Of a DNA stretch of 20,000 nt, positions 1 through 20,000 are shown piece after piece; position 1 is the stretch's first letter, and each line of letters begins with the position of its first letter. The notes beneath the pieces are model-generated. The model did no database searches, was not told the origin of the DNA, and saw nothing but the letters and a program-made list of their open reading frames with translations. Source of the DNA: an uncultured virus (IMG/VR IMGVR_UViG_3300001525_000359) (lineage: Duplodnaviria > Heunggongvirae > Uroviricota > Caudoviricetes); IMG/VR virus record IMGVR_UViG_3300001525_000359; one strand, written 5' to 3'. Both the position numbers and the translations under genes were made by a program.

Positions 1-2
1 AG

Positions 3-122: not shown

Positions 123-127
123 TGCAT

Positions 128-205
128 ATGATGAATTTTGTTGCAGCCATTGGCATTGCATATGCAATTGGGCTAGTCATCTGGCTAATGTTTGAAGCAC
201 GTTAA
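128..205 (+). CDS. small single-TM peptide (25 aa)
   Basis: MMNFVAAIGIAYAIGLVIWLMFEAR*; hydrophobic helix that fills the gap after the upstream stop. Confidence 0.5.
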   Translation: MMNFVAAIGIAYAIGLVIWLMFEAR

Positions 206-229
206 GAAAAGCAAGTACAATATCACTAT

Positions 230-1281: not shown

Positions 1282-1289
1282 GATGGCAA

Positions 1290-2177
1290 ATGCAGACTGA
1301 TGAAGAGAAGCTAACTTAGTTGAAGTAGTTTGAAGAAGAGCTGACTTAGCTCTGTCCAGACTTGTATTTTGACAAGCAACATCTAGCATATTGCCCAAAG
1401 TATGGCTGGATGGATGTTGTCAAGAGCATGTCATTGAAGCTTCAGATGCTAAATGTTGAGCTGAAGCAATATGGTGTGCATATCGTCATATAGCAATGCA
1501 AAGACAAGTTCGGGATGTTGAGAGTGTATGCAGATGCATTTGTGATGATGCCTGCATATGCTAAGCTGCTTATAGATACATCTGACTATGCATGCAGATA
1601 GCTTTAGCAGCATTTTGACTTCAAGATGAAGACTGTCGTTGACATGCCTTCATATGTCAAGCTTCTTGAAGAAGAGATCAGTGAAGCTGAGTTTGAGAGA
1701 TGCAGCAAATATCCAGCTTCAAACGTCAAGTTTGTGAAGAAAGATGGGAAGTTCTTCAGGTAGGGGTCATATTAGACATTTAGAGTGACACATCAAGAAG
1801 CTACTCAGCATAAGCTTGCATATGCATTGTCATCTGCATTTTCATCTCTCTCATAGAGGATTAGCAGATGGCATCAAGGGAGAAAGCATACATCTAAGCA
1901 AGAGTTTGCACTGCAATATGGTGACATGTTGTGCTCTAAGATCATAGAAGAAGCTGAAGAAGCAACTGCTATGATATGTGAGTCATGTGGCGGCGAGCTT
2001 AGTAAGTCAGGATTCAACAGACGTTGCGTTACACGCGGCTGGGTCAGGAACTTATGTCCCACATGTGCAGAGAGATCTGGTGTTGAGTTCTTTGTAGATG
2101 GTGAACTTCATAAAGGCTAGAAGTGTATCCTATCAAAAGAAGACACTTAGAAGAAGTTCGGAGAGCATCCTCAATGA
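1290..2177 (+). CDS. phage protein with KDKFGMLRVY motif and C-terminal Zn ribbon (295 aa, TAG=Gln)
   Basis: Open from ATG 1290 to TGA 2175-2177 if 11 TAG are read as Gln. QCKDKFGMLRVY plus CESCG...GWVRNLCPTC resemble the phage (Q)xKEKFGxLRxY/CxxCG family. Stop overlaps next ATG. Confidence 0.8.
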
Positions 2178-2773
2178 AAAGACGTCTAGATTTCGTCAGC
2201 AACTCAAGCTCAAGTTCATTCATAGTCATAAATGACTATGGGAAATATGTTGATGGCACAAGCATTGGTGAAATGCCAGAAGAATGCATTTAGTTGCCAT
2301 GTGACAATGGCTGCACAGAGTTCAGCTGGCAAGTAGATAAGTACTATGATGTGTTCTCTAAGCTGAATTGGGCCGCACTAGTAGTATTGTCGTAGATCAG
2401 GATCGAGAAGAATGAGACTGATGAAGACAGGCTTAAATCTGCTATAAATGCACCATGGCGTAGAGCAAAAGACATGGAGAAGATGTTGAAGAATGTTTGC
2501 AAACAACATCTTGGTGTCAATGTAAAGCTACGTAAAGCAGAATGGCGTAAAGACTATCTTTTAGTTGGCTACATTGATCATCAAAGTGACATTGTAGAGT
2601 CACCAGAAAATGCACGAATGTTCATGTCTGAGAAGATGTTAGCTGACTTCTTGTTCAATGACGCTTCTTACATAAGGAACTCAAATGACAGTAATGACAA
2701 TGATGAAGATCTTGTGTATGATGAGAAGATTGGTGACTACGTTATATTTCATCCAAGGGACTACACAAGATGA
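2174..2773 (+). CDS. hypothetical protein, FVSNSSSSSF family, copy 2 (199 aa, TAG=Gln)
   Basis: MKRRLDFVSNSSSSSFIVI...GYIDHQS...NSNDSN; 2 internal TAG; ATGA overlaps at both ends. Confidence 0.85.
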
Positions 2774-3651
2774 AGATACGTTTAGATTTTGTGAGCAACT
2801 CAAGCTCAAGCTCATTTGTAGTTGCAGTCAGTGAGAATGTCTCATTAGCAGACTTTTGCAAGACATTTGCTGATGCATGTGCAGATGATGAAACTGATGT
2901 GTAGCTTAAAGAGTAGAACATCATTAGGCTAAGATATTGTTTGTCTGAGAATGTCTTGCTTCATCTTGGCTGGCTTTTCATAAAGAAGACTGAGTCGGTT
3001 TTCGATGAAGATCATTATGCTCAAGATGGTGAGAACATTTCAGATGAAGACACTAAGTACTGGCGGTCTATGGTTGCTGAGCACAAAGATTGCATTGCAA
3101 AGTTTGCTGAAGTGAAAGACAAGCCAGAGACAGAGTAGTACAAAGAGTTTGAGATCTACAAAGATGATTATGTTGATGAAAATGGCAAAGTGCACATGAT
3201 TGAAGAGATCTGGAGTGGACGACATGCTGTCCCAAAACACTTTATGCTTAATTCATTTGTCTTCAACAGACATGAAGACTTTGTAAGCAAAGAGCTAGAA
3301 GATGACTCGAAGAGAATGCGCATTCAGCATATGCAGAAAGTCGGTGAAGTGCATTTCAAAGATGGCGATGTGATGTCTGAGCCAAAGACATATGAGATCA
3401 CTATGGACACCATCTTGAACACAAGAGAGCTTATTGATGCTGGGCTTAAGATAAAGTTCGATGATTGGGAGAAAGACATTGACAAGCTTGAGCATATGCT
3501 AGCTGAAGGGAAAAAGCTCTATGTCATTCAGCATAATCATTCTGGGTGCGGGATGCTTTCAGATGGTGTCTACTCAAGCTATGATATGGATGCTAAGACA
3601 AAGCTTGAAGATGACAAAGACATTGCCATATTGAGTTAGGAGGACTACTGA
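2770..3651 (+). CDS. hypothetical protein, FVSNSSSSSF family, copy 3 (293 aa, TAG=Gln)
   Basis: MKIRLDFVSNSSSSSFVVAV; joins track ORFs 2941 and 3190 in one frame through 4 TAG; TGA 3649-3651 overlaps next ATG. Confidence 0.85.
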
Positions 3652-3965
3652 TGAAAATTAAGCTTGAAGACTTGAGAAAATGCAGCTAGTATGATAAGTT
3701 GTTGCTGAATGAAGATATGCATTGGTAGTTTCTTGACTCATGGTTGTTTACTGACTGGCGACATACTGATAACTTTCCTGGAGAAGAATGCATTGCTGAG
3801 GGAGTTGTCTTGATTGATGCAGATGAGAGCTATGCAGCAGAGTTAGTTCTTATAAAGCATAATGACTTAAATCAGATGTCAGCAATGGTGTATTTGAAGA
3901 AAGATGCAAATGCAGTTGCTTGGGACAGCAGCGCAAACATAGTTTCAATTGAGAAAGAGAACTGA
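3651..3965 (+). CDS. hypothetical protein (104 aa, TAG=Gln)
   Basis: TGATG-coupled start with AGGAGG just upstream; 2 TAG; in frame with track ORF 3744. Confidence 0.75.
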
Positions 3966-3971
3966 AAGAAG

Positions 3972-4538
3972 ATGAAGAGCAAGAAGCCTAATAAGAAAGA
4001 TGCAAACAGCGTAAAGAAGAAAGTTGCATCTAGCAAGAAGAGCAAAAAGTCAAGCAAGTCAATTGCAAAAGACAAGCTGAAGAAACTGATAACGCCATCA
4101 AGGAAGAAGCAATTAGAAGAAGCTGCAGTTGATGAGATGCGAGATGCATTGTCAAATGACTTGAGTGTGAAATCAGAGTCAGGCAATGAGTACAGGCTTA
4201 CACCTAAAGGCATTTTGCTTGCAGTGTTAGATAAGTACTATGGTGCAGGTGAAGACTTGAAGACATTTGATGACTTCATGAAGGACTTATGCCAGCACCT
4301 GTCTATGCTAGCAACAAATGACTCGCAATATGACATGTTTGGTGATGACTTCAACTCTTTATTCGACATGCTTGTGTCGTCAATGAACTTGTCTGGAAAG
4401 ATGAAAGAGATTCTTGATGAGAATGGCATTGAGTTCAATGTTACAGAGTTTCTAGAGAACATCAACTCAGACTGCACAGACAAGTCAGCTGATGACAAAG
4501 ATGATGACAGCAATTTCATGCCAAAACGAAAGAAGTGA
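3972..4538 (+). CDS. hypothetical protein with Lys-rich N-terminus and acidic C-terminus (188 aa)
   Basis: Open ORF without TAG; MKSKKPNKK...SSKKSKKSSK basic tail. Confidence 0.8.
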   Translation: MKSKKPNKKDANSVKKKVASSKKSKKSSKSIAKDKLKKLITPSRKKQLEEAAVDEMRDALSNDLSVKSESGNEYRLTPKGILLAVLDKYYGAGEDLKTFDDFMKDLCQHLSMLATNDSQYDMFGDDFNSLFDMLVSSMNLSGKMKEILDENGIEFNVTEFLENINSDCTDKSADDKDDDSNFMPKRKK

Positions 4539-4562
4539 GTAAAATATAGTTGAAGTTGGTTG

Positions 4563-4592
4563 CTGGATGCAAATCGTGCATCCAGATTTTTT
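4563..4592 (+). terminator. intrinsic terminator-like hairpin
   Basis: CTGGATGCA-aatcg-TGCATCCAG perfect 9-bp stem followed by ATTTTTT. Confidence 0.75.
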
Positions 4593-4631
4593 AGTGAAAT
4601 GAGCATTTGACAACAAAGAGACAAAAAGAAT

Positions 4632-5162
4632 ATGGTATACGAAACAGACGATCATATAGTCAGAGACATCGGTGAGTATTCAGTGATACTTCATCAAGTG
4701 AACACAAAGGGTGTAATGCAGCAAGGCATTAGCATGGCATTGAGCAAGCAGTTTCCCAACTGGTATCCTGACTACCATGGCTACTGTGGCTGGTTTGACA
4801 AAGATGGCTCAATGAACTTTCTACATAAAGACTACACTGAAGACATCATTGGGACATGGCATCGCTATCCAGTTCCTGGACGCAATGTGATAATCTGCTC
4901 TGCATTTGGACAGCGTGGTGCAGGGAAAGAGTATGTGCAGACAGATCTTGAAGCATGGGAAAAGATCATCAAGAAGCTTGTCTTGCAGACTAGACGTGTC
5001 AACAAGATCCAGCCGGAAGGTAAGAAGTGGACAATTCATGTTCCAGCCAACTTGGGATGTCTTGGTAGAGACTATGACAACTCTGAGCTGATGGACATGC
5101 TGAATGATGCATTTGCGAAGTCAGATGATGACTTGTACATTCATGAGAGAGTGGTGTATTGA
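4632..5162 (+). CDS. macrodomain protein (Poa1p/TARG1/DarG-like ADP-ribose-processing fold)
   Basis: ILHQVNTKGVMQQGISMALSKQFP matches HQVNCxGxMGxGIA...YP; also SAFGQ and HVPANLGC. Confidence 0.75.
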   Translation: MVYETDDHIVRDIGEYSVILHQVNTKGVMQQGISMALSKQFPNWYPDYHGYCGWFDKDGSMNFLHKDYTEDIIGTWHRYPVPGRNVIICSAFGQRGAGKEYVQTDLEAWEKIIKKLVLQTRRVNKIQPEGKKWTIHVPANLGCLGRDYDNSELMDMLNDAFAKSDDDLYIHERVVY

Positions 5163-5695
5163 GTTCAATTGATCATCATGTTGTATACTGTGAAGTGTCT
5201 ACTATGTATGAGAAGCATTTTAGGCACTTTGGTGCAGTTGAAGTGTCAAATGTGTTTGCATATGCAATATTAAGCAAATCTGTGAATGACATAATGTTGT
5301 CGGATGACATGATTCATTATTCATACATAGATGACAATAATAGGAAATATGCATTGTTCACATTTGAGGATGATGATGAGTTTGTCAATGTTGTTTAGAA
5401 AGTTGAAGTTGAGTTCTTTAAGCATTTCTTTGTTGCAATTCAAGATGTGAAGACAATTGATGACTTGAACATCACAAAGATCAACTAGGCAAACTCATAC
5501 ATCAATGCAATGTCAGAGTATTTGTTTGATGAATGTGCTATAAGGTAGTTATTGCCACAACATAGAATAATGCTTAAGCAAGCGATAGATGTCTTGAAGA
5601 CATATTTGCATAAGTTGTCATATGCAAAGATATAGTTAGATGACGCAATGTACATATATGACAACATGATCGACATGAAAGTCATAAGAAAGTGA
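5159..5695 (+). CDS. hypothetical protein (~178 aa, TAG=Gln; TTG start uncertain)
   Basis: Track ORF 5159 continues through 4 TAG to TGA 5693-5695. Confidence 0.7.
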
Positions 5696-5708
5696 AATTT
5701 AGATTAAC

Positions 5709-6353
5709 ATGAGTGGAAGCTCTTCATAGAAGCTAGCTGGTGCTTTAGGGCAATGCTTTGCAGATGCTAACATACAACGACATTTCAATGTTGACACATC
5801 ATTTCACTACTATGATGTTGTTGACAAGAATATGCATATTGACATAATGTTCAACTAGACAGCTAGTGTCAGATATGACAACGGAAATGACAGGATCATT
5901 TCTTGTAAGAACTACTTTGTTGACATAAAGACTGCATCTGAAAACTATGGCCATTCTTGCTCATTGCCAGCTGACATACATTACATGGAGTCATTTCTTG
6001 ACAAAGACTACTGGCTTGGGTTTGTGTTTCGTGATGCAGACTACATATCACTTGTTCGCATAACAACACAGTTTGTCGACACATATTTCCATATGGCACA
6101 AGGGAACACTAACGTATATGTGCAGATGGATGAGCTTGAGAGAGATGATGTCTACACTAGATGGCCAGATGACTATCTTAAAGTTCCAGTGATCGGGAGA
6201 GATGGGCCAACTACATTCAACTAGTTCTATGTAGCTTAGCACTTCACTGGACATGAGCTTGATGGAAAAAATGAAAAACAGACAAAGAAGTATGTTGAGG
6301 ATGAGCTTTTGCCATTCTGTGAGAAGCATTTTGGAAGGAACAACGACATCTAA
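5709..6353 (+). CDS. putative PD-(D/E)xK-fold nuclease-like protein (214 aa, TAG=Gln)
   Basis: ATG 5709 to TAA 6351-6353, which overlaps the rmlB ATG. DKNMHIDIMF...YFVDIKTAS resembles an ID...DxK nuclease motif. Function tentative. Confidence 0.6.
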
Positions 6354-7321
6354 TGAAAGGACATGACATGAAAAAGATTTTAGTGACAGGTGGGCTTGGC
6401 TTCATTGGCTTCAATGCATTGCAGCTATGGAAGAGAGAACATTCAGACTGCGAGTATTTTGTAGTTGATAATGAGACATATGCTGCGCAATTTATGTTGT
6501 CTGAGAAGAAAGCGTGGCTTAAAGACAACAATATAAAGCTTCTCAAATGTGACATATGTGCTGAGAAGAAAGTCGAAAAGTTTGTCATAAGCAACAATAT
6601 CGACACAATTGTCCATTTTGCAGCTGAGACGCATGTGGACAACTCGATCTCTGGGCCAGACATCTTCTTCAAGACAAATGTGCTGGGAACTGTCTCATTG
6701 TTGAACATTGCAAAGAAGCGTGATCTTCGTATTCACATCGTCTCGACTGATGAAGTGTATGGTGAGACAACACCAGATAGCTGGACTAGCATTCATCATG
6801 CAGAAGACTATGTCTTGAAGCCATCATCACCATATAGCTCATCCAAAGCAAGTGCCGACTTAGCTGCATTGTCATATCATCATACATTCGGGACAAAAGT
6901 GACGATCTCAAGATGCAGCAACAATGCTGGAAAATGGTAGCATCCAGAGAAGCTGATTGGCACAGTTATATCTAAAGCTCTTAAAGATGAAAAGATACCT
7001 GTCTATGGCAAAGGCAACTAGAAGCGGCATTGGATAGATGTCGATGATCATAACAGGGCAATATTCAACATTCTAGAATCAGGAAAGCTTGACAAGATTT
7101 ACAACATTGGCCCAATTGAAGAGAATTACATCACAAACATGCAACTCATCAAGTTCATATTGAAGCATTTAGATAAGCCGTTGTCACTTATTGAGCATGT
7201 GACAGACAGGCTTGGACATGACACAACATATTTTCTAAAGCCAGAAGAAGACATCTAGACAAGAAGTTATAAGAAGTTTATGCCAGATGTGATAGAATGG
7301 TACAAGGAGAACATTAAATGA
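6353..7321 (+). CDS. rmlB: dTDP-glucose 4,6-dehydratase (322 aa; alternative start 6368)
   Basis: ILVTGGLGFIG, HFAAETHVDNSI, STDEVYG, PSSPYSSSKA, NNAGKW[TAG]HPEKLI, GKGN[TAG]KRHW, DRLGHD; TGA overlaps the rmlA ATG. Confidence 0.95.
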
Positions 7322-8094
7322 GAAGAGGGGTTGTGTTGTGCGGAGGTTTGGGCACGAGACTCGCGCCGATAACTAAGTTTACGTTGAAGCAGTTTTGTCC
7401 AGTGTATGACAAGCCGCTTATCTACTATCCGCTTTACACCATCATGAAGATGGGCATCAAAGACATTCTCTTCATTTCGACGCCAGAAGCTACACTCGTC
7501 TTAGAGAAGAATTTAGGGACTGGCGAAGAGTATGGATGTAGCTTCAAGTACAAAGTGCAAGAGAAGCCAAATGGACTGGCACAAGCATTTGTCTTAGGCA
7601 AAGAGTTCATTGGGAAAGAGCGAGTGTGCCTGATCTTGGGTGACAACATCTTCTATGGTGCGGAATGCCAGAAGCTCTTCAAAGACGCTTGCCGGGGAAG
7701 TGAGAATGTAGTGTTTGGGTATCCAGTGTCAGATCCAGAGAGATATGGCGTAGTCGAGTTCGATGAGAATTGCAATGTCTTGTCTATCGAAGAGAAGCCT
7801 AAGAAGCCAAAGTCAAACTATGCTGTCCCAGGAATCTACTTCTACAACAATGACGTCATCCAGATTGCTGAGAGCTTGAAGCCATCGGCTAGAGGTGAGT
7901 TTGAGATAACTGACGTGAACAAAGAGTACCTGAAGCGTGGACAGCTCAAAGTCATGAAGCTTGGATTTGGCAATGCTTATCTAGACACTGGGACATTTGC
8001 AAGCTTGAATGATGCTAGCAACTTTGTCCGGACTATCGAAGACAGGACTGGACTGAAGGTGTCTGACATCGAGCAGTTCAAGAAGGTGAAGTGA
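7318..8094 (+). CDS. rmlA: glucose-1-phosphate thymidylyltransferase (258 aa)
   Basis: LCGGLGTRLAP, VYDKPLIYYPL, QEKPNGLAQAF, LGDNIF, EKP, SARGEFEITD, DTGT. Confidence 0.95.
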   Translation: MRRGVVLCGGLGTRLAPITKFTLKQFCPVYDKPLIYYPLYTIMKMGIKDILFISTPEATLVLEKNLGTGEEYGCSFKYKVQEKPNGLAQAFVLGKEFIGKERVCLILGDNIFYGAECQKLFKDACRGSENVVFGYPVSDPERYGVVEFDENCNVLSIEEKPKKPKSNYAVPGIYFYNNDVIQIAESLKPSARGEFEITDVNKEYLKRGQLKVMKLGFGNAYLDTGTFASLNDASNFVRTIEDRTGLKVSDIEQFKKVK

Positions 8095-8129
8095 GACGTT
8101 GCTTTCTAACGAAGTAATTTATAACTAAT

Positions 8130-10046
8130 ATGCATACTGAAAACAAATTTGAAGTGCTTACTGGGCGTCTTTAGATTCTAAAGAAGCCTACAATGTGGAT
8201 TGGTGCGATTGATCCGACAGAAAAAGAGATGTTCATCATAAATGATGACAAAGTCGAATACAAGAATGTGACATACATCCCAGCATTTCGCAAGATATTT
8301 GATGAGATCCTTGACAACAGCATTGATGCTTTGATTGAGCATTGCAACTCATGCGGTACAATTAAAGTCAAGATGGATGATGAGAAGATATCTGTTGAAG
8401 ATGATGGGCCAGGAATTCCAGTTGTGAAGAAGCAATTGAATGAGCTTGAGCTAAAGAATCTTCCAAAAGAAGAAGCTGAACAGTTGAAGAACTCATATAT
8501 TCCATTGATTGCATGGACACGAATCTTCTCTGGAACGAATTTTGTCGATGTGCAGCAGAAGACAAATATCGGTTCCCACGGAGTTGGTGCGAAAGCGTGT
8601 GCAATTTTCTCAACAAAGTTCATTGGTATAACTGATGATGGGAAAAAGAGATGTGTTGTCAAGACATTTGACAACTTGGAGAAGAGCTCATGCAAGGTAA
8701 GTGAGACATCTGGACATTCTGGAACATTAGTTGAGTTCTGGCCCGACTTAAAGAGATTTGGATTGTAGAAAGTTGAGCAAGTGTATCATGATCTTGCATA
8801 TCAGCGTCTGCTTTGTCTTGCAATGACATTCCCAAAGATGAAGTTCTCTTTCAATGGGAAGCGTATTGCTGTCAATGACAAGAAGTTTCTGAAGATGTTC
8901 AATGACAACATTGAGTATGTGACGTTTGACAAAGGCTTTGTTGGGATATATCCAAATCAGCACGATGACTTCAAGTTCTTGACATATGTTGATGGCATGT
9001 ACATGGCACGTGGTGGAAATCATGTCGACTTCATCATGAACTCAATTGTTTCACCAATTCGTGAAAAACTTAGCAAGAAATACAAAGCTATAAAGCCAGC
9101 TGACATCAAGAACAAGATGACATTAGTGTGCTTTTTACGAGAGTTCCCTAATCCAAAGTTTGACTCTTAGACAAAAGACACATTGTCAAACTCTTGGGGT
9201 GAAGTGTCAAGTTATTTGCAAGACAAGATTGATTTCAATGATTTTGCAAAGAAAATCTTGAAGAATGATGCTATAATTTCTCCAGTTGTAGAGATGTTTA
9301 AGCTAAAAGAAGAGCTTAAAGCAAGGCAAGAGCTTAAGAAAGTCAAGAAGATAAAAGTAAAGTCAGACAAGTATATGCCATCTATTGGCGAGAAGAAGTA
9401 CTGTCTACTATGCGAAGGGCTTAGTGCTCGTGGTGGCTTAAGCTCTGCACTTGGAAGAAATGGATATGCATTTTATGCAGGGCGCGGCGTCCCGCTAAAT
9501 GCATATGACGCAAACATTCAAGCAATAAGTGCAAACAAAGAACTTAAAGACATTTCATCAATTCTTGAACTTGACATATTTAGTAAATCTGATGCAAAAC
9601 AAATATCTTTTAATAAAGTCATTCTTGCAAATGATGCAGATATGGATGGTATCTTCATTGCAAATCAATATGTAGGATGGTTCACAAAGTTTGCACCAAA
9701 TCTGTTTAATGAGCATAAAGTTGCACGTCTTATAACGCCACTTGTCATTCTTAAAGACAATAAAGAAACACCAGTGAAGTATTTTTATTCATTAAATGAA
9801 TTTAAGAACTTTGAGTCAACGAATGATTTAAGAAAATACAAAATTGATTATAAGAAAGGCTTGGGATCGTGGCCAAAAGAAGAGTTCATTCAACTGTTTG
9901 ACAAGTATGGATTTGAGTATTTTGTTCAAGATCTGTTGATGGATGATGAAGGGCGTGTTTATGTTGATGACTGGCTTAATGGTAGTAATGCTGAAAAGAG
10001 AAAACAGTATCTTCGAAACTTCACATTTAATGTCGAGACAATGTAA
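8130..10046 (+). CDS. type IIA DNA topoisomerase ATPase+TOPRIM subunit (T4 gp39+gp60-like, 638 aa, TAG=Gln)
   Basis: KKPTMWIG, DEILDNSID, DDGPGIP, GSHGVGAK, FDS[TAG]TKD, CEGLSA, DADMDG, YKKGLGS; one frame through TAG at 8172, 8766 and 9168. Confidence 0.95.
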
Positions 10047-10087
10047 AAAGTTAAACATCATTTTTAAAAAAATGTTGTAAATTATAT

Positions 10088-10119
10088 TTAATCAAATTTG
10101 ATGCTGCTTATTTGGTTAA
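10088..10119 (+). promoter_or_regulatory. hairpin 1 with loop TTGATGCTGCTT
   Basis: TTAATCAAAT / ATTTGGTTAA 10-bp stem with one G-U pair; loop is complementary to the hairpin 2 loop. Confidence 0.55.
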
Positions 10120-10121
10120 TG

Positions 10122-10130
10122 TGATATAAT
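10122..10130 (+). promoter_or_regulatory. extended -10 promoter element TGnTATAAT
   Basis: TGATATAAT between the two hairpins, upstream of ATG 10188; AT-rich context lowers specificity. Confidence 0.5.
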
Positions 10131-10147
10131 TTATAAAGATTATTTTT

Positions 10148-10185
10148 ATACCTCCAACTAGCAGCATCTAGTTGGAGGTATTTTT
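10148..10185 (+). promoter_or_regulatory. hairpin 2: RBS-sequestering and terminator-like stem-loop
   Basis: Perfect 14-bp stem ATACCTCCAACTAG-cagcat-CTAGTTGGAGGTAT then a T run; GGAGG (10174-10178) lies in the 3' arm, 9 nt before ATG 10188. Confidence 0.8.
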
Positions 10186-10187
10186 AT

Positions 10188-11453
10188 ATGAGCTATAAAG
10201 AAAGATTGCAAGAAATTGTCAAGACAAAATAGAACAATTCTTATTATAAGTAGAACAACGAGATGTTTGACAATATAGTTGATGCAATTATGTGCACAAA
10301 ATCAACTATCAGTGCAAGAAATATGATTCGTGATAATGAGTAGTTGATCGCATGGATAAATGAACAGCTTCCATAGCTTAATGAATGCAAATTAGACACA
10401 AAGGTGCATTGGATAGTTTATGATAGGCATGTCATGCCAGAATGTCATTATTGCCATCAAACATTAAAAAATGTTGACATTGCAATGTTCGATTAGTATT
10501 GTCAATGGTGTTGTCCATCACATAGAAGTCGTGATCCATTATACAAAGAACATTGTGGCGATCTTTTAGAGAAGAAGCATGGAAAAGGCATAAGATCTAT
10601 TTTTTAGATTCCTGGAGTAAGAGAAAAGGCAAAAGCAACGTGGAAAAAGAAATATGGAACAGAAAATCCATTTTCTCTTTATGAAATAAAGAACAAGAGA
10701 AAATAGACATTCATTAAGCATTATGGTGTTGACAACAACATGAAAAGCGAGAAAGGCATGCAAGAGTATAGAGATGCAATGTAGAAAAAGCATGGCGTCA
10801 ATTACACTTGGCAAATGCCTAGCGTCATACAGAAGTCACAGCAGACATCATATGAACGATATGGCGTATATGTGACATCATAGTCATAGCAAGCAAAAGA
10901 CAAGCAAGCTGAGACAAACTTCAAGAAATATGGCTGCAAGTCAGCATTGCAAAACAAAGAATGTCGCGAGAAGTCAATTCAGACAAGCTATAGCAAATAT
11001 GGCACAATGTGGCCAACACAAAGCAAAGAAGTGCAAGACAAGCATCGCATCAAATATCATTATGGTGACTAGACGTTTGACTCATCATGGGAGCTAGCGT
11101 TCTGGATCTACTGCAAAGAAAACAACATTGACATAAAGCGTGCATCTGTTGCATATGATTATGTTGATGAACGTGGTGACTAGCACAAGTACTTTCCAGA
11201 TTTTGAAGTCAATGGTGAAATCATAGAGATCAAAGGTGATGATCAGTTTGATGAGAATGGAAAGATGATAGATAAACGTGATCATAAGAAAGACTATATT
11301 GCTGAAGCTAAGCACCAATGCATGTTAAAGAACAACATCAAGATAATGAAAGGCGCAGATGTCAAAAAGTATCTTGACTATATTAATTAGAAATATGGAA
11401 GAAGCTATCTGAAGAAGTTCAAGACTATTCAAGAATAGATTGTTGCAAAATGA
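10188..11453 (+). CDS. putative free-standing homing endonuclease 1: Zn finger + 7 KYG repeats + PD-(D/E)xK domain (421 aa, 14 TAG=Gln)
   Basis: Absent from the ORF track. CHYC...WCCPSH, ~23-aa K(Y/H)G repeats, FDSSWELAFW...KYFPDF...IEIKG; TGA overlaps next ATG. Confidence 0.85.
10575..11051 (+). repeat. protein-level array of 7 ~23-aa KYG repeats
   Basis: e.g. KYGTENPFSLYEIKNKRKQTFIK / HYGVDNNMKSEKGMQEYRDAMQK / KHGVNYTWQMPSVIQKSQQTSYE / KYGCKSALQNKECREKSIQTSYS. Confidence 0.85.
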
Positions 11454-12763
11454 AGAAGCTTCGTGGACTATATGCAGTGCTAGCTAAAGCAAATTCATAT
11501 GATGAGCTTTGTGCAATTGTGCAAAGCTTTAAGACGTTGAAATGCTTTCAAGAGAAGCATATGCAATTTCTTGCAACTGAGAAGCAATTTATTAAGCATT
11601 TCATTAATGATGGCTTCACTTTGCTAGACATAAAGTATGCAATTGCTCATAGCGTATTGCCTGAACATAAGTTCTGTTCTATCTGTGGCATTGAAGTTCA
11701 TTCTACTGGACATTCATATCCAATGACGTGCGCATCTAAGCAATGTCGCTATGCATAGACATAGAAGTCGGTTGCATAGTCAAACACTAAAAAATATGGC
11801 GTTTCATGTTGCTTATCTGTTCCAGAAATACATAAGAAGGGCTAGTAGACGAGAGTTGAAATGTATGGAAATGCAAACAATTATGAAAAGTTAAAGTAGA
11901 CATTGCTTGAGCATTATAGTGTCTCATGCACATGGGACATTCTAGAAGTGAGAGAGAAGTCAAAGTAGACAATGATGCAGAACATTGGATATGAGTATGC
12001 ATTATGTTCGCCAGATGTTCATGAGAAAGCAAGAAAGACAAAACTAGAGAGATATGGTGATGAGAACTACTTTAGCAAAGAGAAATATGAGTAGACATGT
12101 GAAGAGAAATTCGGCGTAAGTCATCCAATGAAATGCGATGAAGTGAAGCAAAAGAGGAAATAGTCGTGCATTGAACATTATGGTGTTGACAGCAACATGA
12201 AGTCGCTAGACGGGCTTGCATCTTATTCTAAAAGTGTAAATGAGAAATATGGAAAAGACTTTGTTGTCTAGACGCAATATTTCAAAGAGAAGTCATAGTA
12301 GACGTGCTTAAGAAAGTATGGTGTTAGGCATCATATGTAGAACAAAGACATTTTAGACAAAGCACGAACAAAATATCATTATAATGGTTAGACATTCGAC
12401 TCTTCTTGGGAACTTGCATTCTGGATATATTGCATAGACAACAACATCAGCATTAGACATTCTTAGATGTCATTTGAATATGTAGATGAGAAGAACGTAA
12501 CTCATAAGTACTTTCCAGATTTTGAAGTGAATGAATAGTTAGTTGAGATAAAAGGCGATGACTAGTTTGATGAAACTGGGAAAATGATAGATAAGTTAGA
12601 TCATAAGAAAGACTATATTGCAGAAGCAAAACACTAGTGTATGCTAAGAAATGAAGTGAAGATCCTAAAAGGAAAAGACATTTAGAAATGTTTAGATTAT
12701 GTAGATTAGCAATATGGAAAGAACTATTTGAAGCAATTTAAGAAAAATTCAAAGAAAGTATAA
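11450..12763 (+). CDS. putative free-standing homing endonuclease 2, paralog of 10188 (437 aa, 20 TAG=Gln)
   Basis: CSICG...CASKQC, 9 KYG-type repeats, FDSSWELAFW...KYFPDF...VEIKG; ends TAA 12761-12763. Confidence 0.85.
11792..12370 (+). repeat. protein-level array of 9 KYG repeats (17-23 aa)
   Basis: e.g. KYGVSCCLSVPEIHKKGQQTRVE / KFGVSHPMKCDEVKQKRKQSCIE / HYGVDSNMKSLDGLASYSKSVNE / KYGKDFVVQTQYFKEKSQQTCLR. Confidence 0.85.
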
Positions 12764-12770
12764 TCATTTT

Positions 12771-14132
12771 ATGCAAGATAAATTAGTTAAAGATTTCTAT
12801 AAAGAAGATGTGCCATCTTTCGCTGCGGGAGACAACGTTAGAAAAATATCATCATATGTCGATGGGTTAAAGCTTTCAGCAAGAAAGCTTATCTACACAA
12901 TACTTGAAAAATATCCAAATACTAGCACTAAGACAAAGACTGCACAATTTGCGAACGTCGCCGCGGCTTTTACCAATTATAACTAGGGTGAAGGTAATCT
13001 TGCGGGCGTTGCTAACACATTGGCACAAGATTTCTGTGGAGCAAACAACTATCCATTGCTAATTGGTAGAGGCAATTTTGGCAATAGGCTTGATGACATG
13101 TGTGCAGCACCACGTTACACATTTGTTTCATCTAGCAATATCTTGAAAGCATTGTTCAATGAAGATGACTAGAAGATTGTTGGCAATTAGACATATGAAG
13201 GTGACAAGATTGAGCCATTGTTCTATGTTCCAGTTGTTTCAACATTGTTCTTGAACGGTTCAAATGGGCTTTCTACTGGATTCAGACAAGTCATTCTTCC
13301 AAGAAACATAAATGACATAATCAGCTACATCCAGAAGAAGCTTGCTGGAACTGAGCATCCAAGAATGAAGTTGCTTCCATGGTGGAGAGGCTTCAAAGGA
13401 TCATGTAGATACACTGAAGATGGTGCTCTTGAGATTCTTGGCTGCATTGAACAAGTCAACATGACTACATACAAGATCACCGAGCTTCCTGTGAATGCAG
13501 ATTACTCAAAGTACTGTGAGTTTCTTGACAAGCTTGAAGAAGATGGTGAAATACAGTCATGGAAAGACTTATGTGATCCAAAGACAAACGAGTTGTTGTT
13601 TGAAGTCAAGACGACGAGAGAGTTCACACGAAACAATGACAACTTAGAGAGCTTGCTGAAGAAGTTTCACTTGATAAAGCCATTCACCGAATAGTATAAC
13701 TGCATCGATGAAAACAATAGAGTTAGAGAGTTTAGCTCTATCTACGAGATTCTAGATGCATTCATTGACATTCGCTTGAAGTATTATGATATCCGTAAGC
13801 AGCATATCATCGACGAGCTCAAGAGCTTGATGCAGCAGCTTGTTTCGAAGTATGTCTTCATTAAAGCTGTCATTGACAAGAAGATCATCATCAGCAAGAA
13901 GAAGAAAGATGAGATCATTGCTTAGATAGAGAAGATTGACAAGATTATGAAAGTAGATGGCTCTTACAACTACTTGTTGTCAATGCAGCTGTATGCACTC
14001 ACTCATGAGAAGCTTGAAGAGTTGAAGAGCTTGATTGAGAGCAAGAAAGCTGAGCTAGCTGAAGTCAAAAACAAGACGATCCAGCAGATGTGGCTAGATG
14101 ACTTAACTGACTTGAAGAAGGTGTTGAAATGA
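12771..14132 (+). CDS. type IIA DNA topoisomerase breakage-reunion subunit (T4 gp52-like, 453 aa, TAG=Gln)
   Basis: DGLKLSARK, YN[TAG]GEGNL, GANNYPLL, GNFG, AAPRY (catalytic Tyr), NGSNGLSTGF, ITELP; one frame through 5 TAG. Confidence 0.95.
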
Positions 14133-14311
14133 TTGAAGACTATTCATACGAGTACTGGAAGATGCTGTTAGAAGATGTAGACAATGTAGTTTTTAATGAC
14201 ATCAAAACAATATCTCTAATAGAAGAGTGCGGTGAAGAATATTCATTTCCAATATCACCATCAATATTTAAGTTGTCAAATGGTGCAATTAAGGTAATGT
14301 CAATTGACTAA
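14129..14311 (+). CDS. small hypothetical protein (60 aa)
   Basis: ATGA overlap at start and TAATG overlap at end. Confidence 0.65.
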   Translation: MIEDYSYEYWKMLLEDVDNVVFNDIKTISLIEECGEEYSFPISPSIFKLSNGAIKVMSID

Positions 14312-14808
14312 TGCGCGTTCATTATTCAGAAAATCACAAATTTTGTGATCCATCTGATGTTCCATCTGGATTCTTTGTGAAGTGCTATCCAGTTCATAGA
14401 TATCCAGATGGATTCTTTAATCGTCTTGAAGATAATGAGCATTATGAATAGATAGATCATAGCAAATACATAGATCATTGGGGAATTGACTACGACTTAG
14501 ATAACACTACGATTAATGGACTAAGTCGTTATGTAGATTTCTCTTCATTTGAAGAAGCTGCATTAAGATGTGCAATTCTTGGATTAGAGTGCAAAAGATG
14601 CAAATGGTTTAATTATCCTGCATGGAAAAATAAAGATGGAAACTGGATAGTACGTTATCCATTCAGTCCGTCTTTTTGTGGTGAGTATGTTCCTGAAGAG
14701 AAGTATAATGAGCTTTGTGACAAGATAATGCATAAGATGCTGAAAGATGACTACAGTGAGTACATTGAGAAATTCGGAGACATGCTCTCATACAAGCTGC
14801 CAGAATGA
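14311..14808 (+). CDS. hypothetical protein, Cys/Trp-containing paralog family, copy 1 (165 aa)
   Basis: MRVHYSENHKFCDPSDVPSGFFVKCY...YDL...GL..RCKW...VPEEKYNELCDKIMHKMLKDDY; 1 TAG. Confidence 0.8.
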
Positions 14809-14974
14809 AGCTGACGATTTGCATGAGTGCAATAGTTTAGATGAATTTGCATTATCAAATCTTTTTAAAGATGCAAAGGATTTTAACTTAGACGAATTGC
14901 CAGATTCACCAAATTGCATAAGGCTTAAGAGTGGTGGGTTTCTAATCATTTCTGATTAATATAAAACAAAAATT

Positions 14975-15793
14975 ATGAAAGTAGATAAGCACAATAAAAA
15001 GACATATACAAAATAGCAAATGTTCAAAGCGTTTAAATATTGGACAAATGCGTTAGCTGAATCAGCTAGACTCGATGAAAGCACTAGTGTGTTACTTGAT
15101 AAGTTAGCAGATGACTTAGGATCAAACAACATATTTAATATGACAAGAAAAGTTATTCTTACTGATACTGACATTAAGAAAATATTTAATTCACTGAACA
15201 AACATGTGTTTTCATCAAAGTTAAAGCCAATTCCAATATATTACTATTCATATTAGAAAATTCTTGATGTAATGAGAAGTAGAGGTGCTCCTGAAGATGG
15301 CTTACCTAATGATGAAGTACTTGGTGTGCATTCGTGTTTATGTAATAAAGATACTAATGAAATCAATGAAGATACAATAGTGTCATTTGATAATAACATT
15401 ATTATGATAAACAAAGACATTATGCATAATAGAACATTTATTTTCAATGTTACAACAATTTGTCATGAAATGATACATTATTATGACACACATTATGGAG
15501 ACTATGCAGATTTATATAAAATGTGTGTTATTAATGGTTTGTGGTTTTCTGGACATAACACAAAAACGTTTGAATATTTCATAAATTTGCTATATTCATA
15601 TGATCTGCGTGTACTTCCATTTAAGTATTCAAAAAGCGATGATTAGCTTGAACATGATACTGTAACTCAAATGGCATCAACAATATATGATGAATAGGTT
15701 AGTGAATCTGAAGATCATACACATAAAACTGATACGATTGTGTCTAATATAAGAAATGGAAGAACAACAATATTTGAAGTAGATTATGACTAA
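14975..15793 (+). CDS. SprT-like HExxH zinc metalloprotease (272 aa, TAG=Gln)
   Basis: TICHEMIHYY and downstream SGHNTKTF (third His ligand, SprT-like); joins track ORFs 15020 and 15272 through 4 TAG. Confidence 0.8.
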
Positions 15794-16262
15794 GCTTCCA
15801 TCAGATTTTGTTGTTAAATATGGCATAATACAGGAATGTCGATGGATAGGCTTTAATAACATTGATAAGTCAAATATAAGTTATTGCAAAGTTTAGTATG
15901 ACTTAAATGAAGATATACCGGGTTTAGAACGATACCGGTATTTTAGGACAGTTGACGAAGTTATTTCAATATGTGAAAGACTTGGATTAACACATAAGAA
16001 ATGTAAGTTTTTTAGAGATATGCCATGTAAGTGTGAAGATGGCCATTGGGGTACACATATAGTAGAGGCTACTAACTATGATGGCGTGCTTATTCCAGAA
16101 GATAACTATGATGAGTTATGCGATAAAATTCTGCAAAAGACACTTGGCAAAGACTATGACTCATACATGATGCGTCATATGTCAATGTTTGAGAAAATCA
16201 ACTACAAACTGCATAAGTGGCTGAAAACATTTAAGTTATTGTTCTCAAAATATAAAGCATAA
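15786..16262 (+). CDS. hypothetical protein, paralog family copy 2 (158 aa)
   Basis: MTKLPSDFVVKY...YDL...GLERY...CERLGL..KCKF...IPEDNYDELCDKILQKTLGKDY; 1 TAG; TAATG overlap at end. Confidence 0.8.
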
Positions 16263-17653
16263 TGCGCATATCTCATCCATCTTAGTTCATATTTTGCAAA
16301 GCATCTGATGTTCCAGACAACTTCTTTGTGAAATGCTATTCATTGTATGACTATCATGAGCTTATACTTAATGCTAAAGATAAAGACATCTTGCCAGACT
16401 GCTGGGAAGTCGACTATGACTTAAAGAATACATCTGTTGTCGGCTTATATAGGTTCACACGATTTAAGACATTTGAAGAAGCATAGCAGAAATGCTCTGA
16501 GCTTGGCTTAAAGGTTCGCAAATGCAGATGGCTGCAATATCCGCCTAAGCGAGATGCATCTGGAAACTGGACATATGCTTCATATGATGTGCCATACAAG
16601 TTTGGAAAGTTTATCCCTGAAGATGAGTTTGAGAAACAAAGAGAATGCATATGGCATAAGATGCTGAAAGATGACTATGATGACTGCATAAGAGAGATGA
16701 CAAGAAAAGAGCTAAAAGAGAAGTTAAAGAATGCAAAGTTCTTTGCTGAAGGCTTTAAGCATGACTGCACGTTGAGAGTTGCTGATCTTGAGCGAGATGC
16801 TATCAATGAAGGCATAGATGTAGAGTTCAAGTTCGGAAAGAATTTCATATCATTGAATGACACTCATGAGAAGGGTGTAGACACATCATTGAAGGCTAAT
16901 CCCACATCTGCAAAACTCATTGTTGATGAAGCAAATTTTGATGTCAGGACATTCGATGTCTACTCGATCTTCAAGCGAGTTTCAGGTAATCCTGGTGACG
17001 GAAACTCTCTCATATTCGCTTTGAAAGGAGAGAGAAACTTCATGTTCAAGCATGGTGAGCAACAGAAGTTCAGGAACAGAGCAAAGCAGATCATTGCAAA
17101 GTTTCTTGAAGACTATTTAAAGAAAACTGGGAGAAATGCTGTCTCGACAATTGTTTTGCCATCTGGAAAGTCAGTCAACTCGAATTTCGCAAAGCTTGTC
17201 AAAGAAGTGGCTGCATCTAAACTTAATTGCAAGATGAACTTGTATGATGATGTCTTTGTGAAGCTGCCAGTCGATTTCATCAGGAACAATGTGCAATATG
17301 ATGCTGGCTCACAATATAACAGATGGTTGCATTCACTTGCTGAAGATCGCATTAGCTAGATAAGTGCGTTGTTTGATTATGACTTGACACAAATGGAGAA
17401 ACTAAGAAATGGATATTTCACATATCATATGGTGTCTGATGCAAATGTCAGGAACATGATTAGCTCTTCATTGTCTGTCAATGCAAATGAAGACTATGCT
17501 GGCATGTTTAGCCCGATTAACGACAAGCATGTCTTGATGTTAGATGACATGATGTCTAGAGGTGCAACGATCAAAGATGCTATCAGGAACTTATGTTGCA
17601 GTTATCATCCCAAAAGCATAACTGTCTTGACGCTTCTTTCACAGAAATATTGA
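16262..17653 (+). CDS. paralog-family domain (copy 3) fused to a type I phosphoribosyltransferase domain (463 aa, TAG=Gln)
   Basis: N-terminal SDVPDNFFVKCY...HKMLKDDY; C-terminal HVLMLDDMMSRGATIKDA PRPP-binding motif; 3 TAG; internal Met 16697 may be a second start. Confidence 0.8.
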
Positions 17654-17681
17654 TTTTTGTCTAAAGCCATAAAATTTAAAC

Positions 17682-18782
17682 ATGAGCAATTTAATGGACT
17701 ATATTTCAAAAGAGATCAATGATATCTCACATCTTCAGTATGTATTTGGACAAGGTGAGGCATAGCAAGCACAGAAGAAGAACGTCCTGATAGTAGGATG
17801 CAGAGGCATGCTTGGTGCTTATGTGCTTGAGCAGTTCAGTAAAGATGCAATGAGAAAAGACTCGATCTTCAACATTGTTGCTGGCGTTGATTTGCCTGAA
17901 GTTGATATCAGGAGCTATGCTAGCATTGAGAAGTACTTGAAAGATGCACTTGATTTTGATGTGATAGTGAATTGTGCAGCATATACAGACACAAATGAAT
18001 GCGAAGACAATAAGCATAAGAGCATTGCATATGCAGTGAATGCAGTTGGCACAAAGAATCTTGCGAGAGTTTGCTCAGAGCATTGCATCAAGCTCATTCA
18101 CATCTCTACAGACTATGTCTTTTCGGAGCATAGCTATGACTTTGATGCAGATGAAGCAATAGAGTTTCCAGTCAATGAATATGGCATGCAGAAGCTTATG
18201 GGAGAGAAGTTCATTGATGAAGAGCTTGCTGAGACGCAATATGCAATTCTCAGGACATCTTGGCTTTACTGGCAATGCAGCAAGCCAACATTCATTCATA
18301 AGTTCTTGCTAAACTGCAAGAAAGTGACTGGACAGAATAATGCCGTCGTGAAAGCTACATCAGACAATTTTGGCAAGCCGACATCAGTTGCATCTGCATG
18401 TGAATTCATTCGAGAAGTCATCAAAGAAGATGCATGTGGCATAATGGATATGCAGTACTTAGGTGCACCTATGTCAAGACAAGAGTTTGCTGCACATGTC
18501 CTGAATGCTTGGAAGAATGCAGCTGGCACAATGATGGATGTCAAAGTAGAGGGTGTCATGTCAGATGACTTGCCAAGCAAGATCTAGCATCCAAAAATGA
18601 TCAAGAATGTAGAAGGCATGCCATATGAGACAACACCAACTATGCTAGAGAACGATGCTTACATTAAGCTTGCTAGCAAATGCAAAGGCATGAAAGATGT
18701 TCATGATGCAGTTGCTTAGATTCACAAGTTCATCAAGACATACCATTTAGACATTTAGAAATGGCTAGATAAGCAGAAATAA
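17682..18782 (+). CDS. rmlD: dTDP-4-dehydrorhamnose reductase (366 aa, TAG=Gln)
   Basis: NVLIVGCRGMLG, VNCAAYT, VNAVG, HISTDYVF, NEYGMQK (YxxxK), ILRTSWLY, GKPT; 4 TAG; ends TAA. Confidence 0.9.
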
Positions 18783-18808
18783 TGTTTTATGTATTTTTAT
18801 GAACATAT

Positions 18809-18845
18809 ATATGCAATGCCTAGTTTGGTGTTGCATATTTTGTTT
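18809..18845 (+). terminator. intrinsic terminator after rmlD
   Basis: ATATGCAATGCC-tagttt-GGTGTTGCATAT (12 bp, 2 G-U) followed by TTTGTTT. Confidence 0.7.
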
Positions 18846-18877
18846 AAATATGATGATGTATTTGATATTATTTCATT

Positions 18878-19141
18878 ATGAAGAACATTATTGAAGTCAG
18901 TAAGAAGTATGCATTGAAAATGCTGTTGTGTGCAGGTTTAGTATTTGGTTTTGCATATGGTGCAAACGCAGATGCGAATACGAATGCAACACATTTTACA
19001 ACAGCAGATAGTAGAGTGCATGTACAAATTGTCTGGCTTGATGGACATAAATATGTTTTTGCTTCAACTACTTCTTATCGAGGTGGTGTTTTTGTTATGC
19101 ATGCATTTTCTTGTCCATGCTTAAATAACTCTAATAAGTGA
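18878..19141 (+). CDS. small exported or membrane protein with signal peptide (87 aa)
   Basis: KKYALKMLLCAGLVFGFAYGANADA basic-hydrophobic-AxA signal; C-terminal HAFSCPC. Confidence 0.75.
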   Translation: MKNIIEVSKKYALKMLLCAGLVFGFAYGANADANTNATHFTTADSRVHVQIVWLDGHKYVFASTTSYRGGVFVMHAFSCPCLNNSNK

Positions 19142-19148
19142 AGTTCTT

Positions 19149-19176
19149 ATGTAACATCAGTTGATGTTGCATTTTT
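19149..19176 (+). terminator. intrinsic terminator
   Basis: ATGTAACATC-agtt-GATGTTGCAT (10 bp, 1 G-U) then TTTT. Confidence 0.65.
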
Positions 19177-19178
19177 AG

Positions 19179-19201
19179 TTTAAGCTATAATATAGCTTAA
19201 A
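19179..19201. promoter_or_regulatory. perfect palindrome (operator-like) containing TATAAT
   Basis: TTTAAGCTATA-A-TATAGCTTAAA, 11-bp arms with a 1-nt spacer, TATAAT at 19186-19191. Confidence 0.55.
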
Positions 19202-19226
19202 TAACAATTATAATATAATTATTTTA

Positions 19227-19982
19227 ATGAAACAATTAACTACTGTTTTTTCTAAAAAGTCTTTAATTTCTTTTCAATATACATTTAGAAAACAAGATTA
19301 TGATGATAATGGCAAATTTACTAAATTAATTTGGCAAAAATGTTATGCAAATGTTTTTAAAACCATTGCAAATGAAATTACAAATAATGCATATTCAAAA
19401 ATATTTTCTAGTAGTAAGTCATTATGGCATAAAATCATTAATGATGAGTATGTAAATTTGTTAAATTCATTTAATTCTTTATCATTAAACTATAAAGAAT
19501 CTAAAGATAAAATATACAATGAATATACAACTAAATTTAGAGGAAATTGTGCAGAGATTCTAATCGAGGCAATGGCTAATAATGGATGTTTTTCTCCAGA
19601 TTTTATTGAATTAGATTCATATGTTCCAGTTGATCCAGATGCAGAAAGAGGAAATGATACTTTAGTTACAGCAATTGATGCTAAAGCTAAATCTTCTATG
19701 AATGGAAATGAAATTGGAATTCAAATCAAAAACTGGCAAAAAGACGTTAATGATTCGATTGTATTTGATAAAGCATGTTCTACAAGCTGGAAATGGCAAC
19801 AACAATTTAAAGAAAATGAATTCAACCAATATATAATTGGATTTTCAGATTCTTTCATGGCAAAAAATTATGAGAAGTTTGGAGTAAAGTTTTTAAATGC
19901 TAAATATTTAGATTCTAAAGGCTTGAATAAACTTCCAAAATTCTTTAATGACATTGCAGATCAAATTCTCAACTATAAATAA
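19227..19982 (+). CDS. putative restriction-endonuclease-like (PD-(D/E)xK, Mrr-type QxK) protein (251 aa)
   Basis: RGNCAEILIE...AIDAKA...IGIQIKNW fits G..E / ID / QxK; very AT-rich; no TAG. Confidence 0.6.
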   Translation: MKQLTTVFSKKSLISFQYTFRKQDYDDNGKFTKLIWQKCYANVFKTIANEITNNAYSKIFSSSKSLWHKIINDEYVNLLNSFNSLSLNYKESKDKIYNEYTTKFRGNCAEILIEAMANNGCFSPDFIELDSYVPVDPDAERGNDTLVTAIDAKAKSSMNGNEIGIQIKNWQKDVNDSIVFDKACSTSWKWQQQFKENEFNQYIIGFSDSFMAKNYEKFGVKFLNAKYLDSKGLNKLPKFFNDIADQILNYK

Positions 19983-20000
19983 TAAAAATATGAATGCTAT

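Follow-up and report, generated by a model that had tools for sequence, protein, structure and literature searches.

Fully complementary loops of 6–7 nucleotides (nt) nucleate RNA–RNA pairing in the antisense systems ColE1 RNA I/RNA II and R1 CopA/CopT, where they act in trans between two RNAs. In the fold-back inhibition of IS10, a mobile-element gene is shielded from translation on outside transcripts by a simple long-range helix. Here we describe a 141-nt leader in a 20,000-nt stretch of DNA (the window, IMG/VR record IMGVR_UViG_3300001525_000359) from an uncultured virus of the Caudoviricetes, which stands directly ahead of a putative homing endonuclease gene and contains two hairpins with complementary loops. 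It resembles the antisense systems in the length and complementarity of its loops, but not in their action between two RNAs, and IS10 in that translation would be prevented on outside transcripts, albeit by two hairpin loops instead of a long-range helix.

By analogy, the leader is best grouped with the leaders known to control translation of phage homing endonuclease genes, the kissing second hairpin being its new feature. A review of T-even phages (PMC2988022) describes stable structures that sequester the ribosome-binding site (RBS) of I-TevI, I-TevII, I-TevIII, segB and Aeh1 mobE, and the comparison with these genes, drawn by an earlier reading of the letters alone (the sequence-only reading), is apt. 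In both types of leader a stable hairpin covers the Shine-Dalgarno region (a putative one in the window) of a selfish nuclease gene, which in the window, too, would be reached by read-through from a host operon; both contain promoter-like boxes, and the likely purpose is little or late synthesis of the nuclease. However, the T-even leaders are single hairpins in which an internal late promoter gives rise to a message without the 5' arm (PMC2988022), whereas the window leader has a second, upstream hairpin that pairs loop to loop with the RBS hairpin and covaries with it, and its only promoter-like boxes are located 5' of the whole RBS hairpin.

The closest precedent in cis is the guanidine-II (mini-ykkC) riboswitch, which is reported to combine two tandem leader hairpins, a loop–loop contact by the Shine-Dalgarno sequence and control of translation initiation. 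Its loops are conserved ACGR tetraloops with a ligand-dependent contact, whereas those of the leader and its homologue (see below) comprise 6–7 nt, are fully Watson-Crick complementary and differ between the genomes. Membership of the window leader in this family was rejected, given loops of 6–12 nt without ACGR and the absence of the family among the Rfam matches listed (E up to 10). No Rfam match in the window reached the gathering score, with only sub-threshold noise in both leaders, and no publication describing such a leader was found among titles and the beginnings of abstracts.

Architecture of the leader

The features of the leader are listed below in window coordinates.

10047..10187, + strand: leader, 141 nt, 22% G+C; relatives without the nuclease lack both the leader and the two nuclease genes, which together form an insertion
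10075..10136, + strand: extended hairpin 1 (lower A/U stem and core) in the minimum-energy fold, -15.9 kcal/mol
10088..10119, + strand: core of hairpin 1, with a stem of about 10 base pairs (bp), one of them U.G, and with AUGCUG exposed in a loop of 12 nt, TTGATGCTGCTT
10100..10108, + strand: loop-1 strand of the loop–loop helix, GAUGCUGCU (6-nt core 10101-10106)
10122..10140, + strand: two promoter-like boxes, TGATATAAT at 10122-10130 and TATAAAGA at 10133-10140, which separate the cores of the hairpins and resemble promoters in sequence only
10148..10181, + strand: hairpin 2, terminator-like, with a 14-bp stem (10148-10161/10168-10181) and the loop CAGCAU (10162-10167), -21.0 kcal/mol
10160..10168, + strand: loop-2 strand of the loop–loop helix, AGCAGCAUC (6-nt core 10162-10167)
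10174..10178, + strand: GGAGG, part of the 3' arm of hairpin 2 and followed after 9 nt by the ATG at 10188-10190; UGGAG is conserved in the homologous leader L002
10181..10187, + strand: spacer rich in U (UUUUUAU) that separates the base of hairpin 2 from the start codon, with Ts at 10181-10185; L002 has UUUUUU at the same place

The sequence-only reading had proposed that hairpin 1 exposes ATGCTG, the exact complement of the hairpin 2 loop CAGCAT, and both loops are present as described. Its claim that the pairing can be extended to 9 bp also holds, since the strands GATGCTGCT (10100-10108) and AGCAGCATC (10160-10168) are perfectly reverse complementary, and stem 2 with its GGAGG 9 nt before the ATG and its terminal U run is found in the sequence as well as in the predicted fold. 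In the core of hairpin 1, positions 10088/9-10097 are paired with 10110-10118/9, and G10100-C10107 forms an inner pair. Apart from the two loop strands, the 20 kb contain no exact copy of the 9-mer. A wider complementarity connects 10092-10108 with 10160-10176 (14 of 17 positions), and, with one gap allowed, 19 of 24 positions at the top of hairpin 1 agree with the reverse complement of hairpin 2 (P = 0.0045 from shuffles).

Both hairpins belong to the minimum-energy fold, with a pair probability above 0.9 for most stem pairs, and none of 200 shuffles of the leader region (154 nt) folded as well (z = -5.2). An attenuator-type nested helix between 10100-10108 and 10160-10168 was rejected as an alternative fold, costing 9 kcal/mol relative to the optimum (-30.3 vs -39.5). 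The extended hairpin 1 is much more stable on the + strand (-15.9 kcal/mol) than on the - strand (-6.1), the difference being caused by three G.U pairs. The loop of hairpin 1 also contains the start of a mini open reading frame of seven codons (10101-10124; ATG CTG CTT ATT TGG TTA ATG TGA), to which nothing seen in L002 corresponds.

The stem of hairpin 2 ends 6 nt before the ATG of nuclease gene 1, which places the RBS region within a stable structure, and L002 has the same layout. Whether GGAGG is a true Shine-Dalgarno sequence is uncertain from the sequence, because such a motif precedes, in our reading, only three of the 23 genes of the window (3651, 7318, 10188), the regions ahead of the starts being rich in A/T instead; Shine-Dalgarno pairing may be dispensable in the host. 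UGGAG nevertheless constitutes the invariant part of hairpin 2, so that GGAG is kept in the leaders of both the window and L002.

A TGnTATAAT box between the hairpins had likewise been noted. The box exists (TGATATAAT), but it falls inside the 3' arm of the extended hairpin 1, lacks a -35 partner and is absent from the list of the sigma-70 scan; the same type of scan showed no sigma-70-type site between the hairpins of L002. Both promoter-like boxes of the window leader lie 5' of hairpin 2, and a transcript starting from them would lose hairpin 1 and retain all of hairpin 2.

Covariation with a homologous leader

The metagenomic contigs L001 and L002 are TAG-recoded and harbor a nuclease of the DUF7487 family between the same two topoisomerase genes as the window. 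In L002 the order is large topoisomerase subunit, nuclease and medium subunit, and the nuclease is preceded by a 116-nt leader without alignable similarity to that of the window beyond short motifs. The architecture is nonetheless conserved, although the nucleases of the window and L002 are only 34% identical. Hairpin 1 of L002 (550-570; CGAAUCA/UGAUUUG with a 7-nt loop GUAGCGG and an outer GUGC/GCAC stem) is followed by a 33-nt spacer and by hairpin 2 (604-633; GUCUCCAU/AUGGAGAC plus an inner GAA/UUC helix, 8+3 pairs, -11.4 kcal/mol) with the 7-nt loop CCGCUAC. Next come UUUUUU and GUG 640, the first possible start codon in the nuclease frame. The 3' arm of hairpin 2 in L002 also contains an ATG (626) that is out of frame and is followed by ACU UUU UUG (626-642); a -1 slip on the U run would link it to the nuclease frame, which is probably a coincidence.

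The two 7-nt loops of L002 are exactly complementary, and their pairing reaches 9 bp (556-564 with 615-623), with a distance of 50 nt between the pairing arms compared with 51 nt in the window. The expectation of the sequence-only reading that the loops should covary in homologous leaders thus held in the one that was obtained: six of the nine pairs of the loop–loop helix are changed on both sides, three are unchanged, and pairing is lost in none. (An alignment of the leaders by MAFFT did not match up the two copies of hairpin 1 correctly.) In its lower part, the stem of hairpin 2 comprises five invariant pairs (CUCCA/UGGAG) and three that are changed on both sides. Stacking of the kissing core amounts to -6.2 kcal/mol in the window (6 bp) and -10.6 kcal/mol in L002 (7 bp). 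As in the window, hairpin 1 of L002 folds better on the + strand (-12.1 vs -7.0 kcal/mol), here due to a single G.U pair. The presence of G.U pairs in hairpin 1 of both genomes and the much better folding of the + strand point to a function of hairpin 1 as sense-strand RNA and not as a DNA palindrome.

How often such a match arises by chance was estimated in several ways. The probability that a 6-nt loop is fully complementary to a site inside a 12-nt loop is P = 0.002-0.008. Among 12,488 neighbouring hairpin pairs from 1.52 megabases of phage and metagenome DNA (both strands), a loop–loop complement of at least 6 nt occurred in 85 (0.68%) and of at least 7 nt in 21 (0.17%), most of the latter being A/T-only strings. 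Bare 9-nt inverted repeats are common, with 39 9-mer pairs at a spacer of 3-80 in the window. The pairing in the window taken alone is therefore suggestive only. The chance of the loop match in L002, which is a single test since no other homologous leader was available, is 0.0005-0.0013, and with this replicate the loop–loop pairing is, on these estimates, more than chance. The background scan also caught a 9-nt loop–loop complement, GTTGGTAGC, inside the second group I intron of contig L009 (Rfam, 94.9 bits), which shows that its criterion picks up structured RNA.

At the level of the letters, the two leaders document selection for pairing between the two loops, together with a conserved fold in which hairpin 2 ends 6 nt before the start codon and GGAG(G) is located 8-9 nt upstream of it. 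Because a distant relative keeps the loop pairing with different letters, the two-hairpin fold is probably a real control element that limits production of the enzyme.

A proposed role of the leader as a translational block

By analogy with the T-even genes, the most likely function of this element is repression of nuclease translation. The 141-nt stretch would represent the RNA leader of a free-standing homing endonuclease cassette that invaded the topoisomerase II operon of a TAG-recoded phage. In sense transcripts the leader is predicted to fold into the two hairpins, and hairpin 2, ending 6 nt before the start codon with GGAGG in its 3' arm, would thereby fill the ribosome landing region of nuclease gene 1. 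Pairing of loop 1 with loop 2 (6-bp core, up to 9 bp) would tie both hairpins into one compact fold, supplying stability or a kinetic lock on hairpin 2. On read-through messages from the topoisomerase gene this fold would keep the nuclease untranslated, and messages without hairpin 1, or without part of hairpin 2, would be less tightly closed. We give an even chance to this reading as a whole, i.e. that a leader acting in cis blocks the nuclease start and is fastened by the loop–loop helix; its regulatory logic is our inference. The layout of the genes fits polycistronic read-through, with the nuclease on the same strand between two topoisomerase genes that are adjacent in three nuclease-free relatives (L020, L021, L026).

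Several observations weigh against this reading. Hairpin 2 of the window already reaches -21 kcal/mol, so that a lock seems superfluous there; it would count more in L002, where hairpin 2 has -11.4 kcal/mol. The nested-model optimum of L002 swaps hairpin 1 for a helix between 567-577 and 640-650 in the start region (-32.8 vs -30.8 kcal/mol), and the window has a near-isoenergetic alternative too, in which the stretch just after the hairpin 1 core is paired with the region of the start codon (-39.4 vs -40.1). This alternative pairing of the post-hairpin-1 segment with the start region in both modelled leaders is a lead only. The lower stem of the extended hairpin 1 leaves an 11-nt linker that, by a length estimate, would be too short for a coaxial kissing complex, and lower stem and kiss may thus exclude each other. 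Most genes of the window are, moreover, without a Shine-Dalgarno motif.

The distribution of the feature points in the same direction. It is present in two leaders only, which share ancestry and probably go back to one cassette. L001 has the same synteny without a leader, the ATG of its nuclease overlapping the TGA stop of the topoisomerase gene, whose product is 45% identical to the large subunit of the window. For the 11 distant family loci (L003-L016 without duplicates), a scan for hairpin pairs detected no loop–loop pair upstream of the nuclease start, and none was seen in eight copies from the Prevotella phage Lak-A1 or in the additional family loci examined. The folds of ten of the 11 distant loci (L003, L005-L011, L013-L016) and of L001, L009 and L011 contained no hairpin ending at the start. 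A terminator-like hairpin is located 40-50 nt upstream in three of the 13 folded leaders (L008, L014, L016), and the Lak-A1 copies L185, L186 and L193 have one with a U run 17-75 nt before the ATG, with loops that are not complementary.

The sequence-only reading had interpreted the leader as a switch with two regulatory states. Of this interpretation, the loop–loop pairing and the comparison with the T-even RBS hairpins are supported, but no ON state of a switch is evident: even at 9 bp the kiss opens at most the top two pairs of the -21 kcal/mol stem 2 and GGAGG stays paired, and the wider complementarity of 10092-10108 with 10160-10176 would itself cover GGA of GGAGG.

Alternative explanations

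The main rival of a translational block is that hairpin 2 with its U run primarily serves as an intrinsic terminator that insulates the cassette, while contact with hairpin 1 tunes termination up or down on topoisomerase transcripts and occlusion of the start is secondary. The sequence accommodates a terminator role equally well. Among nine terminator-like sites in the window, hairpin 2 is listed first and has the longest stem (14 pairs, six of them G-C, loop of 6, tail TTTTATAT), three further terminator-like hairpins follow window genes (4563, 18809, 19149), and a run of six U directly follows the hairpin of L002. The terminator-like hairpins upstream of family members in the three distant loci and the three Lak-A1 copies named above fit as well, and a read-through device would make sense at this site, since the downstream gene for the medium topoisomerase subunit needs transcription through it. 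Terminators tied to T4 mobE and segF have been described (PMC2988022). They share with the window a G+C-containing hairpin with a U run at the 5' border of a nuclease gene and an essential partner gene downstream; they are, however, located inside the coding region with a documented promoter before the downstream gene (PMC2988022), whereas the hairpin of the window stands 6 nt before a start codon and is tied to a second hairpin. A strong terminator at hairpin 2 would, moreover, starve the essential partner gene, with no room for a promoter in the 6 nt to the ATG, and the nuclease-free relatives have no terminator in the 9–13 nt between their subunit genes. The other terminators of the window are 40-55 nt away from the next start, and the gap of only 6 nt at hairpin 2, identical in L002, suggests a link to initiation. 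The U run may equally represent an A/U-rich landing region, and the terminator scan does not list the L002 hairpin, which we attribute to its long, bulged loop. Taken together, we regard a primary role in termination as unlikely, yet as the most serious of the rivals.

Less probable still is a loop complementarity without function, in which hairpin 2 would be an ordinary RBS or terminator hairpin, hairpin 1 an A/T-rich palindrome and their match a coincidence or the trace of an inverted duplication. The modest chance estimate for the window alone, from among many windows scanned, the abundance of 9-nt inverted repeats in the 20 kb and the likeness of the top of hairpin 1 to an inverted copy of hairpin 2 are in line with this view. 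L002, however, repeats the complementarity in different letters, and a neutral duplicate would not hold nine of nine pairs while six changed on both sides. Its stems are, in our reading of the sequence, unrelated beyond the paired 9-mer, so that an inverted duplication does not explain the pairing. The stacked hairpin 1, loop–loop helix and hairpin 2 might instead form a processing or stability element, for example the target of a double-strand-specific ribonuclease that separates topoisomerase and nuclease messages. The site lies exactly at the junction of host gene and cassette, and coaxial stacking would yield a helix of about 30 bp, but the fixed distance of 6 nt to the start codon is left unexplained, and we deem this option quite improbable. 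The least probable explanation, with a very small share of our confidence, takes the inverted 9-bp repeats as DNA half-sites for a protein and the hairpins as incidental, the nuclease for example repressing itself like I-TevI, whose autorepression at an operator overlapping its late promoter has been described (PMC2988022). The repeats do flank the promoter-like boxes. The G.U pairs and the strong strand asymmetry of hairpin 1 nevertheless point to RNA; the sites covary rather than stay conserved, are 60 bp apart and each fall exactly in a hairpin loop, and no enrichment of the 9-mer is seen elsewhere in the window (8 matches at up to one mismatch vs 10.1 expected).

Nuclease family, recoding and insertion site

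The genes around the leader are as follows.

8130..10046, + strand: gene for the large (GyrB-like, T4-type) subunit of topoisomerase II, 5' neighbour of the leader; Pfam DNA_gyraseB, TOPRIM_C and HATPase_c; tblastn matches to phage 'DNA topoisomerase II large subunit'; three in-frame TAG
10188..11453, + strand: nuclease gene 1, 421 amino acids, 14 in-frame TAG; DUF7487 repeats and a C-terminal D...E.K nuclease-like domain
11450..12763, + strand: nuclease gene 2, a paralogue (39% identity) with 20 in-frame TAG, whose start overlaps the stop of gene 1 (ATGA)
12771..14132, + strand: gene for the medium (GyrA-like) subunit of topoisomerase II, 7 nt after nuclease gene 2; Pfam DNA_topoisoIV, 243 bits

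All long frames are located on the + strand and become continuous once TAG is read as glutamine (Q), which is indicative of TAG as a sense codon in this phage. At least one in-frame TAG is present in 16 of the 23 frames of the window (1-20000), and seven genes have none. The density is highest in the two nuclease genes (3.3 and 4.6 per 100 codons, representing 44% and 67% of the Q-type codons), with the gene at 1290-2177 next at 3.7 and the topoisomerase genes at 0.5 and 1.1 per 100 codons. If TAG suppression sets in late, it would by itself delay synthesis of the nuclease.

In Pfam both paralogues match DUF7487 repeats only, and they match PHROGs 3339 and 12131, which are named 'homing endonuclease'. 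D338, E347 and K349 are invariant in nine sequences of the family, which also shows weak profile matches to endonuclease I of phage T7 (E 0.16-0.43). The AlphaFold model of nuclease 1 has a predicted local distance difference test score (pLDDT) of 86.5; a Foldseek search of the whole chain against the PDB gave no match at E <= 0.001, the weak ones including several PD-(D/E)xK nucleases. The closest nuclease homologues (P0005-P0011) are 42-65% identical, with P0005 (65%) and P0006 (60%) at the top, and no paper on DUF7487 was found in the literature search. In L009, which has group I intron matches at 3700-3826 (36.2 bits) and 4717-5047 (94.9 bits), the DUF7487 nuclease gene (2851-3720) extends into the 3' part of the first intron; the family therefore also occurs as an intron-encoded gene. 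The recoded megaphage Lak-A1 (loci L185-L193) has 13 DUF7487-type matches in about eight genes.

The window, L001 and L002 have a nuclease between the topoisomerase subunit genes, whereas L020, L021 and L026 have none at this site and their large and medium subunit genes are separated by just 9-13 nt; the large subunit of L020 is 51% identical to that of the window. Judged from this comparison of gene spacing, the region 10047-12770 was inserted in the manner of free-standing homing endonucleases. A group I intron at this locus was rejected, because the window has no Rfam match and the topoisomerase genes are separate in relatives. The topoisomerase region of Campylobacter phage CC_R7 was also tried as a comparison and discarded, its layout being unrelated. 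The downstream junctions of the window (12758-12773) and L001 (4204-4219) are alike, the nuclease ending in GTATAA and the ATG of the medium subunit following 7 nt on, and that of L002 differs in having a 21-nt spacer.

The search for further relatives gave little. Blastn of the window against 50,697 phage records retrieved no match, and neither did queries of IMG/VR with P0001, the hairpin 2 sequence and P0003 or scans of genome contigs with the nuclease alignment; a contig scan with the topoisomerase alignment found only bacterial type II topoisomerase genes with at most 27% identity. The IMG/VR records of L019 and L020 contain no nuclease of the DUF7487 family, the contig of L019 stopping inside the topoisomerase gene. 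Other inserts were seen within the gene for the large topoisomerase subunit itself, which is interrupted by about 2 kb near residue 430 in L037 (2960-6829) and by about 0.7 kb near residue 258 in L028 (4001-6519) and L086 (4001-6516). The IMG/VR record of L037 has several further DUF7487 matches elsewhere. In this phage group, the topoisomerase II genes seem to be a hot spot of mobile insertion.

Implications for selfish nuclease genes

Homing endonucleases need sparing expression and must not disturb the essential genes that they invade, a problem that T-even phages have solved with a single RBS hairpin. A covarying loop–loop contact would add a further layer, namely a tertiary RNA lock able to distinguish transcripts by their origin, in a topoisomerase II operon that occurs both with and without the insert among related phages. 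It is a tentative idea, which we hold with less confidence than the translational block itself, that the leader belongs to a widespread and uncatalogued class of cis-acting RNAs. Each selfish nuclease cassette would then possess two hairpins with a private loop–loop code that closes only in cis, so that read-through from the host operon, here that of topoisomerase II, makes no nuclease, and only messages started at the promoter of the cassette itself, which are devoid of the key hairpin, can do so. The TAG-dense coding of the nucleases would act as a second, suppressor-dependent gate in TAG-recoded phages. The leader would also show, in compact and natural form, how an intramolecular kissing complex is placed at a start site of the bacterial type.

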